Below, in pieces: positions 19,258-21,817 of a DNA stretch of 64,000 bases. The notes beneath the pieces are model-generated. The model saw only the letters and a program-made list of their open reading frames with translations. It had not been told where the DNA came from and did not search any database. The first letter of the stretch is position 1; the number at the start of each line of letters is the position of its first letter. This stretch comes from Alphaproteobacteria bacterium UBA6178 (GTDB taxonomy: Bacteria > Pseudomonadota > Alphaproteobacteria > Rickettsiales > UBA3002), in NCBI GenBank assembly GCA_002422205.1, contig DITS01000033.1, forward strand, positions 4,083 through 68,082, in the 5' to 3' direction. Made by a program: the position numbers and the translations under genes.

Positions 19258-19259
19258 AA

Positions 19260-19277
19260 TCGTCATCAAACCTTCAT
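19260..19277 (+). promoter_or_regulatory. Pho-box-like direct repeat upstream of the Gly-zipper cluster
   Basis: TCGTCATCAAACCTTCAT, 69 nt before ATG 19346. Confidence 0.5.
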
Positions 19278-19345
19278 TTGAGATGGAGGGCGTGCGGGCT
19301 TACACTGAGGATGCCGTATTGTGTAACCTCAACAGCCGTGGAGCG

Positions 19346-19819
19346 ATGCTTTCATTTTTAACATCGATTAAAGAATTTGCCGTGGGAACCGTGGGTGGTT
19401 TTTTCAGCTGGGCGCTTGACGGTGTACATTATGGCGGCTGGGCCGGTTTGATTGTAGGCGGCATTATCGGGCTTAGCACCGGTAATCCGGCGATGATACT
19501 GTTAGGCGGATTGGGTGGTGCGGTTGGCGGTGCGGCGATGGGCGGGCTGGGCGGCCTGATGTTTGGCGGCATTAGTGAGGTGTGGGATCATTATCAGGCA
19601 CCGGAAGGATCGGGTAAGGCAGCACCGGCTAAACCGGTTGCGCCTGCCAAACCTGCCATGGTGGTTGATCAATATAAAGCAAAATATGACGCTAAGGCGA
19701 GTGCGGAAGCAGATGCCAAAGCGGCATTGGAGAAAAAAGACGAGACGCCTTCTACGGTGGTGGAGGGAGGTGGCACGCTGCTTCCCAGCGGGCCTGCACC
19801 GGAAGGGAGGACGCGCTAA
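19346..19819 (+). CDS. orphan glycine-zipper membrane protein P1
   Basis: MLSFLTSIKEF...GGIIGLSTGNPAMILLGGLGGAVGGAAMGGLGGLMFGG, followed by a PAKP/KA-rich tail. The start is reset from 19283. Confidence 0.6.
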   Translation: MLSFLTSIKEFAVGTVGGFFSWALDGVHYGGWAGLIVGGIIGLSTGNPAMILLGGLGGAVGGAAMGGLGGLMFGGISEVWDHYQAPEGSGKAAPAKPVAPAKPAMVVDQYKAKYDAKASAEADAKAALEKKDETPSTVVEGGGTLLPSGPAPEGRTR

Positions 19820-20404
19820 ATGTTTGATCCGTTACAATATACATTGGGTGCCGTGTGGGGGGCGATTAAAGCGCCGTTTGTATGGGCGTTTAGTGGGTTC
19901 TGGGCCGGGCTGAACGGAGCACTCACCGGCGGGGCTATCGGGCTGGGAGCAAGTGTGGCGGTGCAGCTTTTAGGCGGGCCGGTGCTTGCCTTTATTGAAG
20001 GATTGGCGCCTTCGCTGGGCGGGGCGGCATGGTTTGAGGCGGCGCGTCATTATGTGGCCTCGACCACCTGGGTGGAAAAGCTGGCCTTGTTTACGCCGGT
20101 GGCTGCTGCTGCGGGTGCGGGGTTGGGGGTGGCTTCGGCCATACCACGTGCGATCAGCGAGAATCAGCAGACAGTGCCCGAATTTACCAGTGATGTGACC
20201 AAGGAAAAAGTGACCGTGAATGGCTGGGAGCGCGGCCAGAACCATGGGGTGACAGCCGGGGTGCTGCTGGCGGCAGGGGCTGCGGCAATGGTGGGCGTGG
20301 GGATGGCCAAAAAATATGGCTATATAGGTGATGGCGAAGAAACCAGTACGCCCGTGCCACCGCCACCGACTGCAAAAACAGACCCAGTGGCGCCTGAACG
20401 TTAG
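19820..20404 (+). CDS. orphan glycine-zipper membrane protein P2
   Basis: The ATG directly follows the P1 TAA. The N-terminus resembles P1 (G.V.G...WA..G..G..GG.IGL). It has several G/A-rich hydrophobic segments and a proline-rich tail. Confidence 0.6.
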   Translation: MFDPLQYTLGAVWGAIKAPFVWAFSGFWAGLNGALTGGAIGLGASVAVQLLGGPVLAFIEGLAPSLGGAAWFEAARHYVASTTWVEKLALFTPVAAAAGAGLGVASAIPRAISENQQTVPEFTSDVTKEKVTVNGWERGQNHGVTAGVLLAAGAAAMVGVGMAKKYGYIGDGEETSTPVPPPPTAKTDPVAPER

Positions 20405-20438
20405 GCTCACTCAGACTTTAAGGGCGTTATTTGCTGAA

Positions 20439-20456
20439 TTGTCATAAAAGCTTCAC
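20439..20456 (+). promoter_or_regulatory. Pho-box-like direct repeat upstream of P3
   Basis: TTGTCATAAAAGCTTCAC, 78 nt before ATG 20534. Confidence 0.5.
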
Positions 20457-20533
20457 TTTTGTCGGACGGGACTCGTGCTATTATGGGCATGTATAGAGAT
20501 AAGCACTGCGTGCAATACGCATAAAAAATAAGG

Positions 20534-21376
20534 ATGGATACCATGGCACGACAATCTTATGAGCCGATTAATCACTCGGGCGGATCTGCAGTTGCAACGG
20601 AATTAGCTGAAACATCGCGTGGTGGTGCCCGTGGCGCGCTGCGTGGCATTATTATTGGTGCGCTAGTGCCTGTGGCGTTATTGGCTGCGGCGGGCGTTGG
20701 TATGGCGGCCTTATTTGGCGGCGGTGCCCTTGCGATGACAGTCGTGGGTGTGACCGCTGGCGCAGTAGGTTTATTTGGCAGTGCATTGGGTGCCACGTGG
20801 GGCGCAGTGGCAGGTGGCGTATTGGGATCGGCTAGAGGATTTGACCGTGGCGAAGCACGGGTGGAACAAGAACGTGCCGCGGCGCGTGCGCAGAGCGCCT
20901 ATGATCGTCAGCGTGCCGGTTTGGAGAGTGTGGTGCAAGCCCAGATGGCGGACGCGCAAGCACGTATGGCGCTGGCACAAGCGATTATGAGTCAAGGCGG
21001 TGTTCCGGGTGCGCAAGTAGCGGCTTATGGTGATGCGTCGACTGCCGCATTGGCTGGTGAAGCAGCGGTTGCCGATGAAACGATTCTGGCGGCGAAAAAA
21101 GATGATAAGAAAAAAGATGTTCATGATCGTGGCGGATGGGGCACGACACCGCCTGAAGCACCCAAAGCCGCTTTAGTTGCTGAGGCGACACCGCAACAAG
21201 CTACTGGTGGTTATAGCGATGTCAGCGCTACGATTCCGGCTGCGCGTTCGTCGATTGAAGTGCCTTCGTCGACTGATGTGCCCAGTGCTAAAGTGAATGC
21301 AGCGTCGATTGATGTGGCAACAATGCATGCAATGCAAGAGCAAGCGGCAGTAGAACACGGCCACAGCCAAGCGTAA
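20534..21376 (+). CDS. orphan membrane protein P3 (long G/A-rich hydrophobic block + coiled/low-complexity C-terminus)
   Basis: About 65 aa of contiguous G/A/V/L-rich hydrophobic sequence, then AQ-rich repeats and a GGY...AARSSIEVPS motif shared with P4. Confidence 0.65.
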   Translation: MDTMARQSYEPINHSGGSAVATELAETSRGGARGALRGIIIGALVPVALLAAAGVGMAALFGGGALAMTVVGVTAGAVGLFGSALGATWGAVAGGVLGSARGFDRGEARVEQERAAARAQSAYDRQRAGLESVVQAQMADAQARMALAQAIMSQGGVPGAQVAAYGDASTAALAGEAAVADETILAAKKDDKKKDVHDRGGWGTTPPEAPKAALVAEATPQQATGGYSDVSATIPAARSSIEVPSSTDVPSAKVNAASIDVATMHAMQEQAAVEHGHSQA

Positions 21377-21385
21377 GGAATTAAT

Positions 21386-21817
21386 GTGATGGGGCGAAAG
21401 TTGGATATAGTTGTAGATGGGATTGATGCTGGGCTTGATGTCACGCGTCAAGGCTGGGAAAAGCTCAAGCCGACTCCTATCAAATCTTTTTTTTCAAAAC
21501 TGGCTGCACGCCCTAGAATGGCAGCGTTTCTGGGGGTCATTGCGGGTGGAGCGGTGGCATCAAAATTTATTATGCCGCATGCCTCTGGTGTGAATGATAT
21601 ATCTGCCGTATCGCAATTGGGTGCGGATGCAGCTAATCGTGATTTTGCGCGGGATATGGCAGCAATGCAGGCACAAGCCCAGCAAGGCGGCGGTTATATG
21701 CCGGTGAATATGGCGGCGGCGCGATCGGACATTGATGTGCCCAGCAACCTGATGGCGGCGGCTTCGGCGCAATATGACGGGCTGATGGCTGAAAAACTCG
21801 GCAAGACCGTGCATTAA
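21386..21817 (+). CDS. orphan protein P4 (single hydrophobic segment)
   Basis: Lies 9 nt after P3. Its C-terminal GGGY...AARSDIDVPS parallels P3. Confidence 0.55.
   Translation: MMGRKLDIVVDGIDAGLDVTRQGWEKLKPTPIKSFFSKLAARPRMAAFLGVIAGGAVASKFIMPHASGVNDISAVSQLGADAANRDFARDMAAMQAQAQQGGGYMPVNMAAARSDIDVPSNLMAAASAQYDGLMAEKLGKTVH

Follow-up and report, generated by a model that had tools for sequence, protein, structure and literature searches.

A stretch of 64,000 nucleotides (nt) from Alphaproteobacteria bacterium UBA6178 (contig DITS01000033.1, positions 4,083 to 68,082; hereafter the window) contains four same-strand open reading frames (ORFs), P1 to P4, between a SpoU-family methyltransferase gene (18412-19257) and rpsD (21992-22609). 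P1-P4 are real genes. They are an orphan set of families that joins a known structural theme to a known promoter type in a clade without a cultured member. The mechanism put forward here, tentatively, is PhoB-type activation of two promoters, with products that would be glycine-zipper hairpin proteins oligomerizing in the cell's own membrane.

Pho-like boxes and their promoters

An earlier note on this DNA, made from the sequence alone, divided the genes into two sub-operons, P1-P2 and P3-P4, each headed by one box of an orphan regulon. Both boxes are present, at 19260/19262 and 20439/20441, one ahead of each sub-operon (Table 1), and both are conserved upstream of the orthologous genes in related loci (designated by L numbers). 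The Pho box consensus consists of two CTGTCAT direct repeats with a 4-nt A/T-rich spacer (PMC3131613, PMC4415409). By our own count, box 1 agrees with the canonical Pho box CTGTCATAWAWCTGTCAY at 13/18 positions and box 2 at 14/18. The box 1 orthologues upstream of P1 are TCGTCATAAAAGCTTCAT in L002 and CTGTCACAAAACTGTCAT in L087, the latter agreeing with the canonical box at 17/18 positions. Upstream of P3, box 2 is identical in L002 and L004 and reads TTGTCACAAAACCTTAAC in L086; the L005 version, TTGTCATAAAACTGTCAC, again matches the Pho box at 17/18 positions. Two CTGTCAT-like repeats around a 4-nt A/T-rich spacer are found in the window boxes and in those of L087 and L005. No other intergenic sequence is as well conserved in three lineages as the boxes.

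The -10 elements, which are likewise conserved, lie 20-23 nt downstream of the boxes. In the P1 promoter, CATTTGAG and TACACTG are invariant in three aligned lineages, as is GTG.TAT.ATG in the P3 promoter. These promoters share the 18-bp tandem repeat with those of the Pho regulon, and may share the combination of a weak or missing -35 element with a good -10 element. Pho-type control is proposed because the box repeats have a period of 11 bp with an A-rich spacer, the orthologous boxes match at 17/18 positions, another box of the window reads TTGTCACGAAACTGTCAT, the distance to the -10 element is held at 20-23 nt, and a relaxed form of the box pattern occurs 14 times in the window versus 2.8 expected.

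The stricter box pattern was found 7 times in the window versus 0.79 expected. Eleven of the 14 relaxed matches stand 53-85 nt upstream of nine transcription units, all of which encode only proteins that lack a Pfam family. No box precedes any scanned window gene that has a Pfam family, and every Pfam-less gene of the window but one sits behind a box. This regulon-wide pattern is more unusual than the cluster itself. The placement of nearly all orphans in 64 kb behind a Pho-like box would mean either a large, lineage-specific Pho regulon or an accessory gene set whose regulator was co-opted.

The Pfam-less gene that lacks a box is 22905-23414, a conserved hypothetical next to rpsD that keeps this position in L002, L086, L088, L004, L005, L057 and L073. 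Immediately before it is a 31-bp tandem repeat (22747-22828; 2.6 copies, 96% matches; TGCGCAAGCCGCAGGATGACCGGGGTAGGTA).

Gene families and their relatives

The four ORFs were found where the earlier note had placed them, with one correction at the start of P3. The gene itself stands, and its start is more likely ATG 20543 than 20534 because an AAGGA ribosome-binding site directly abuts 20534 and lies 9 nt before 20543, because the window protein read from 20543 begins MARQSY and the L002 orthologue begins MARESY, and because the public gene call has 277 amino acids (aa). The P4 start at ATG 21389 is that of the public gene call (142 aa). P1 has a GGAG ribosome-binding site 5 nt upstream, and the noted TAAATG junction of P1 and P2 is the same in L002; in L087 the end of the P1 ORF, at 1270, is followed by a P2 start at 1274. 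The stretch occurs with identical sequence in NCBI, ENA, JGI (metagenome 3300001605) and Logan assemblies.

The failure of the earlier note to recognize a family was borne out by searches of Pfam, NCBIfam, PHROG, PADLOC and PDB sequences, which gave no meaningful match for P1-P4 and did not place them in a known housekeeping family. Pfam returned no family for P1-P4 at E ≤ 1, the glycine-zipper families PF05433, PF13488, PF13441 and PF13436 included. Seven members of the P3 family gave just two unrelated Pfam families, at E = 0.16 and 0.38, and neither they nor P1-P4 matched the PAAR or DUF1795 families. NCBIfam gave no real match for the four proteins, P2 retrieving only LolE and Apt far below threshold, and PHROGs and PADLOC gave nothing meaningful. 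The PDB sequence searches were run with P2, a P3 profile and a P4 profile. An exhaustive phmmer search of P2 against 1.84 billion protein representatives returned itself and one other protein (P0008, 39% identity), and word-indexed searches of 5.8 billion proteins returned the queries themselves and one or two relatives. A GTDB genome scan with the P3 alignment and two metagenome scans were empty.

The earlier note had proposed a search for co-occurring homologues, and the four-gene order recurs in three further lineages. L002 has the order gltX-cysS-hyp-leuA-hyp-hyp-SpoU-P1-P2-P3-P4-rpsD-hyp170 (hyp, hypothetical), and its proteins are 52% (P1), 55% (P2), 58% (P3) and 54% (P4) identical to those of the window. 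The order SpoU-P1-P2-P3-P4-rpsD is kept in L002 and in L086 and L087, where identity to the window is 26-38%, and partly in L084, which carries the end of P3 and P4 at 83% identity (BLASTP). Vertical inheritance of the cluster between SpoU and rpsD spans lineages in which rpsD is just 83% identical to that of the window. The window rpsD is at most 74% identical to its GTDB counterparts among the matches listed, a figure that sets no firm taxonomic bound, and leuA is 72% identical to those of UBA998 and UBA1002.

A wider set of 80 GTDB loci with rpsD was fetched, in 32 of which SpoU lies upstream of rpsD. The SpoU-rpsD gap is just 114-460 bp in 8 of these 32, which are loci of other alphaproteobacteria. 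A 2-kb gap with G/A-rich hydrophobic ORFs is found in L057 (UBA998), L073 (UBA1002) and L005 (an Azospirillaceae metagenome-assembled genome, MAG), and L004 (6_bin.22) also has such ORFs at this position. Hidden Markov models (HMMs) were built from the window, L002 and L086/87 lineages alone and searched against 8,047 ORFs. The P3 HMM matched only syntenic ORFs, in L073 (E = 7e-10), L004 (5e-7), L057 (3e-4) and L005 (4e-4); these four GTDB MAG relatives of P3 had been missed by BLAST. The P4 HMM matched L073 (E = 9e-4). The P1-like first genes of L057 and L073 are suggested by position and architecture (HMM E = 0.06 in L057), and P2 was found in the window, L002 and L086/87 lineages only. A partial upstream ORF of L004 was considered as P2 and could not be assigned. 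The ancestral unit was probably a box with a P1-like gene followed by a box with P3 and P4. The cluster appears from these comparisons to be an old, vertically inherited and lineage-restricted unit.

For P1-P4, most comparisons gave a ratio of nonsynonymous to synonymous substitution rates (dN/dS) of 0.22-0.37. Against L084, where the comparison is unsaturated, it was 0.23 and, for P4, 0.30; P1 versus L002 gave 0.28, and P4 versus L086 gave 0.54. The rpsD values are 0.07-0.10. By these ratios, P1-P4 are under purifying selection yet evolve fast.

Protein architecture, proposed mechanism and alternatives

Glycine plus alanine make up 28-36% of the residues of P1-P4, and GxxxG occurs 12 times in P1, 8 in P2, 11 in P3 and 2 in P4. 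The glycine-zipper hydrophobic segments that the earlier note saw as the scaffold of these proteins are borne out by the counts and by glycine conservation: GxxxG or small-xxx-small spacing is repeated in two-helix hydrophobic hairpins, as the P1-P3 counts and the invariant glycines of P1 illustrate. P1 has a conserved N-terminus (MLSFLTSIKEF.VGTV..FFSW) followed at residues ~29-77 by a two-lobed glycine-zipper hairpin with an invariant TGN turn, and the hairpin glycines are invariant across three lineages. In P2 the hydrophobic G/A-rich segments span residues ~9-68, 87-110 and 141-166; the protein also has a polar insert that is conserved, SENQQTVPEFTSDVTKEKVTVNGWERGQNHG, and a Pro-rich tail. 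The P1 and P2 tails are rich in Pro, Ala and Lys, as described, and poorly conserved. P3 starts with a conserved ..SYEPINHS.. and has a long G/A/V/L hydrophobic block, also as described, in which 63 residues (35-97) run without a charged or amide side chain. A conserved Arg/Glu/Gln-rich helix follows (~99-150; RGFDRGE.RV..ERAAA...), then a variable linker and the C-terminal motif. The N-terminus of P4 is variable, and its one hydrophobic segment, MAAFLGVIAGGAVASKFIM, is weakly so; the protein also has a conserved stretch, SQLGADAANRDFARDMAAMQ, and the C-terminal motif. The likeness that had been noted between P1 and P2 holds in the window, where 0/1000 shuffles align as well, and is weak elsewhere (112/1000 in L002, 42/1000 in L086). 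Their alignment by hhalign gave E = 0.01, and paralogy of P1 and P2 is weakly supported by these comparisons.

The C-terminal motif shared by P3 and P4 is real. BLASTP of the two window proteins aligned only AARSSIEVPSS with AARSDIDVPSN (8/11 identities, E = 0.015), and hhalign of the close lineages gave E = 5e-4. In four lineages the best local alignment of P3 with P4 falls at this same C-terminal spot and beats shuffled sequences, with 19, 6, 2 and 0 shuffles per 1000 as good. The close orthologues L084 and L002 keep the motif, which there and in the window takes the form GG[YH]xxVxxxxxAAxSxI[ED]VP. The L086 tails share VPTxMAGNI[ED][HY]QG.V instead, those of L005 share AMxPAFxxxP, and L057, L073 and L004 show no significant sharing between P3 and P4 tails. 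The two tails tend to change together between deep lineages, with a permutation p of 0.003 that overstates the case because the members of the window group are not independent. Such co-change fits a common partner or gene conversion. Concerted evolution within the window group was considered and discarded, the P3 tail of the window being closer to the P4 tail of L002 than to its own P4. What stands is the difference in tails between deep lineage groups alone. The retention by two adjacent paralogous tails of a common short motif that varies between lineages points to a shared binding partner.

The suggestion that AARSxIxVPS might be a general secretion or sorting signal did not hold up; the motif is confined to P3 and P4, and the distant relatives have other motifs or none. 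A six-frame translation of the window contains a shorter pattern, [FILVM][ED]VP[ST], just three times. One copy is in P3 and one in P4, and the third belongs to 17395-18333(-), an orphan headed by a box. The pattern may be a linear motif shared by proteins of the regulon, or a coincidence. In the orphan the peptide is GLSFEVPSK (17604 region), and the L002 orthologue (~7146, minus strand) keeps IRIEVPTK. In L088 (GCA_035906915.1, JAMIEF010000155.1; 1-150) the gene upstream of rpsD ends ...LGRAQAQQEFVAEQAQQAPARVAA, without GGY...IDVPS. The S4 protein of L088 falls in the same 90% cluster as that of the window, and the gene end shows that the tail motif can be lost even in fairly close relatives.

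The proposed mechanism would start with a phosphorylated winged-helix response regulator, most likely PhoB, that binds head-to-tail to the 18-bp tandem repeat, and phosphate limitation would hence be the most likely cue. With the repeat abutting or replacing the -35 element, sigma-70 RNA polymerase would be recruited to the conserved -10 elements. P1 and P2 would be made from one transcript with translational coupling, and P3 and P4 from the second promoter. Each protein would enter the cytoplasmic membrane of its own cell through G/A-rich helical hairpins, whose GxxxG and small-xxx-small faces would drive the helices to pack tightly; the resulting oligomers could be of one protein or mixed, P1 joining P2 and P3 joining P4. 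The disordered tails would protrude from the membrane, and those of P3 and P4 would offer the same short peptide to one partner. The presumed physiological role is a membrane that is reinforced or reorganized when the regulon is on.

A precedent is OsrP of Caulobacter, a stress-regulated glycine-zipper envelope protein in the Alphaproteobacteria that is expressed under sigma-T/GsrN control (bioRxiv 10.1101/344820). Glycine zipper 2TM proteins (PF05433/PF13488-type), OsrP and SlyB among them, would resemble P1-P4 in being small, in forming a G/A-rich two-helix GxxxG hairpin, in having expression tied to a stress regulator and in their presumed oligomerization in the membrane. SlyB of Escherichia coli is a glycine-zipper envelope protein under PhoP. 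P1-P4 differ from this group in having no Pfam match and no signal peptide or lipobox, in being four proteins in two operons, in their long disordered tails and in the C-terminal peptide shared by P3 and P4. Transporters, phosphatases and lipid remodelling are the best-known outputs of the phosphate-starvation response, and the proposal, if true, would add a membrane-structural one. It would also mean a previously undescribed set of three to four linked glycine-zipper membrane protein families, under a Pho-type switch, that is confined to a barely sampled alphaproteobacterial clade. An analogy with the magnetosome proteins MamGFDC was dropped, as there is no island context and no family match.

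Both the regulatory and the membrane part of this proposal face contrary observations. On the regulatory side, no pst, phoB or phoR gene lies in the annotated part of the window. The boxes also differ from those of Pho regulon promoters: the second half-site is NCTTCAY, not CTGTCAY, in most of them, and about ten boxes in 64 kb, all before orphan genes, exceed an ordinary Pho regulon in density and in one-sidedness. In E. coli pho promoters the box lies ~10 nt upstream of the -10 element, which puts the window boxes ~10 bp (one helical turn) further away. The box density and the restriction to orphans are hints of a co-opted or paralogous regulator. The same architecture could be served by another OmpR-family regulator of the Alphaproteobacteria, such as the envelope regulator CenR or a lineage-specific PhoB paralogue, that answers envelope stress or another cue. 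This alternative draws on the unusual density, restriction and spacing of the boxes and on the CenR motif, TGA-N8-TGA (PMC9275681), which is the TCA-N8-TCA core of the box on the opposite strand. It is judged rather unlikely; the CenR motif is low in information, and several boxes agree with the Pho box at 16-17/18 positions including the A-rich spacer. It is compatible with the same protein function. ChvI was rejected as the regulator, its motif of GCC repeats 11 nt apart (bioRxiv 10.1101/2021.04.17.440287) being unlike the box.

On the membrane side, hydrophobicity was measured as crude Hessa-scale sums with segments of MraY, FtsW and EamA from the same 64-kb stretch as the yardstick. The P1 and P4 segments are marginal, with sums of +1.9 to +3.1, and the L086 P4 has no scoring window below +4. 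Several of the segments are only marginally hydrophobic, and it is hence uncertain that they would insert stably in the membrane of the producer. AlphaFold2 (AF2) models are unusable: that of P2 is predicted as all-helical at a mean predicted local distance difference test (pLDDT) score of 53.5, and that of P3 has a pLDDT of 48, its helix at ~101-150 alone reaching 63-85. The marginal sums, the very low AF2 confidence and the extensive low-complexity tails would suit proteins that are not integral to a membrane and whose G/A- and A/Q/M-rich sequences self-assemble into fibrils, surface aggregates or condensates. That outcome is quite improbable. The first segment of P3 (+0.5) and the last of P2 (+0.15 to +1.6) equal typical MraY, FtsW and EamA segments, true transmembrane helices of this genome, in hydrophobicity. 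Within the hydrophobic segments no alignment columns are better conserved than those of the glycines, a pattern that fits helix packing, and Arg clusters flank the P3 block.

The earlier note had speculated on insertion into host or vacuolar membranes and on a pore or bacteriocin role. This idea is unsupported: neither the cluster nor its immediate surroundings contain a gene for secretion, immunity or a chaperone, inheritance is vertical and the Pho boxes look ordinary. In its broader form, P1-P4 would be exported membrane-inserting proteins of a large secreted-protein regulon, either Inc-like effectors against a host or prey or contact-dependent or pore-forming toxins of the Cdz or VacA kind. 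PmrA control of Dot/Icm effectors in Legionella and Coxiella is an analogy. The placement of all Pfam-less window genes but one behind the same box agrees with export, as do the lack, by eye, of a signal peptide in any of them, the [FILVM][ED]VP[ST] peptides, all three of which are in box-headed orphans, the unusually strong GC skew and the evolution of P1-P4 at three to four times the rate of rpsD. The only marginal hydrophobicity of the segments is expected of proteins that must avoid insertion in their producer. Against export, the cluster has kept its place on the chromosome between housekeeping genes across distantly related lineages and is not on an island, and nothing points to a host-associated organism. 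With leucine, purine, NAD and full cell-wall pathways all encoded in the window, the genome is not visibly reduced. Export is unlikely on this evidence. A narrower version, which is quite improbable, makes P1-P4 the membrane-inserting arm of a lineage-specific arsenal under a co-opted PhoB-type regulator; a host, prey or competitor cell would receive the proteins in its membrane or be perforated by them, with the shared C-terminal peptides (GGY..IEVPS, and [FI]EVP[ST] in a third regulon protein) as an export or target tag.

Known systems of this kind resemble the cluster in part. The P3-family profile weakly matched the N-terminal glycine-zipper transmembrane region of Tre23 (PDB 7pq5) over ~115 residues at E = 9.6e-4, which would favor export. 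Homology was rejected, the match being largely compositional (bias 14.4 versus a domain score of 21.5 bits). Type VI secretion prePAAR effectors such as Tre23 share with P3 G/A-rich, marginally hydrophobic helices; the P3 family differs in lacking a PAAR or Rhs domain, and the locus has no Eag (DUF1795) chaperone gene. The prePAAR motif is AARxxDxxxH, and its Arg, Asp and His positions are not conserved in P3-family proteins, whose N-terminal motif is ..PINH/R... Chlamydial Inc proteins have a bilobed hydrophobic domain like P3 35-97 and P1 29-77, a resemblance of form only; as in P3, the two-lobed block is near the N-terminus with hydrophilic flanks. They belong to a different phylum, and P1-P4 differ in being a conserved chromosomal unit with a Pho-type promoter. 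No type III secretion gene was seen in the annotation of the 64-kb window, nor anything indicating an intracellular lifestyle. The Cdz proteins of Caulobacter are contact-dependent glycine-zipper bacteriocins (Garcia-Bayona et al. 2017, cited in bioRxiv 10.1101/2023.06.06.543975). They are, like P1-P4, small alphaproteobacterial glycine-zipper proteins encoded side by side. Compared by gene context, the P1-P4 locus differs in having no adjacent type I secretion genes (cdzAB) or immunity gene (cdzI) and in its SpoU and rpsD flanks in every lineage.

Other features of the window

The features of the cluster and the remaining boxes are listed in Table 1.

Table 1. Coordinates of the P1-P4 cluster, its promoters and motifs, and the other boxes of the window
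Feature	Position	Strand	Description
Box 1	19260-19277	+	TCGTCATCAAACCTTCAT; TCAT...TCAT tandem direct repeat, 11-bp period, A-rich spacer
P1 promoter core	19278-19306	+	-35-like TTGAGA abutting box 1, 17-nt spacer, -10 TACACT
P1	19346-19819	+	157 aa
P2	19820-20404	+	194 aa
Box 2	20439-20456	+	TTGTCATAAAAGCTTCAC; tandem repeat, 11-bp period, A-rich spacer
P3 promoter	20476-20484	+	Extended -10 TGC TATTAT, 20 nt downstream of box 2, without good -35
P3	20543-21376	+	277 aa; likelier start ATG 20543
P3 C-terminal motif	21206-21268	+	GGYSDVSATIPAARSSIEVPS
P4	21389-21817	+	142 aa; alternative GTG start 21386
P4 C-terminal motif	21686-21745	+	GGGYMPVNMAAARSDIDVPS
Other box	9590-9616	-	Heads ~9087-9533(-); tandem triple repeat
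Other box	12106-12132	-	Heads 11434-12045(-); tandem triple repeat
Other box	15184-15199	+	Heads 15261-15767(+)
Other box	18401-18416	-	Heads 17395-18333(-)
Other box	23878-23917	-	Heads 23411-23833(-)
Other box	38569-38586	-	Heads 37614-~38510(-); TTGTCACGAAACTGTCAT, nearly canonical
Other box	58783-58798	-	Heads 57806-58717(-)

Between P4 and rpsD (21818-21991) lie an rpsD promoter, TTGACT-16-TATGGT, and a leader of ~110 nt, both of which show strong conservation in L084, L002, L088 and L086. With its complementary stretches GAGCGTTTCCC...GAGGAAAC, the leader may be an S4 autoregulatory one; it gave no Rfam match at the gathering score. GC skew is positive over the whole window (1-64000; +0.09 to +0.29 in 2-kb steps, ~54% GC) and is +0.13 to +0.24 in the related loci. 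Skew of this strength seems unusual for an alphaproteobacterium.

Two adjacent paralogous methyltransferase-domain proteins of ~450 aa are encoded at 24735-27448(-). One of them has a C-terminal PqqD-like domain (E = 2.6e-4), and the pair may be a peptide-modification locus. A 294-aa ORF at 36712-37596(-), directly downstream of the box-headed orphan 37614-38510(-), has a sub-threshold Pfam match to DarT, a single-stranded DNA ADP-ribosyltransferase (E = 8e-4; 19.6 bits versus a cutoff of 22.5). The ORF 30563-31180(-) was discarded as an orphan because it reads purQ in the wrong frame. The gene proper occupies 30588-31277(-) and encodes a purQ-like product with MKSAVIQFPGSNCERD at its start; a purS-like ORF ends just before this gene.

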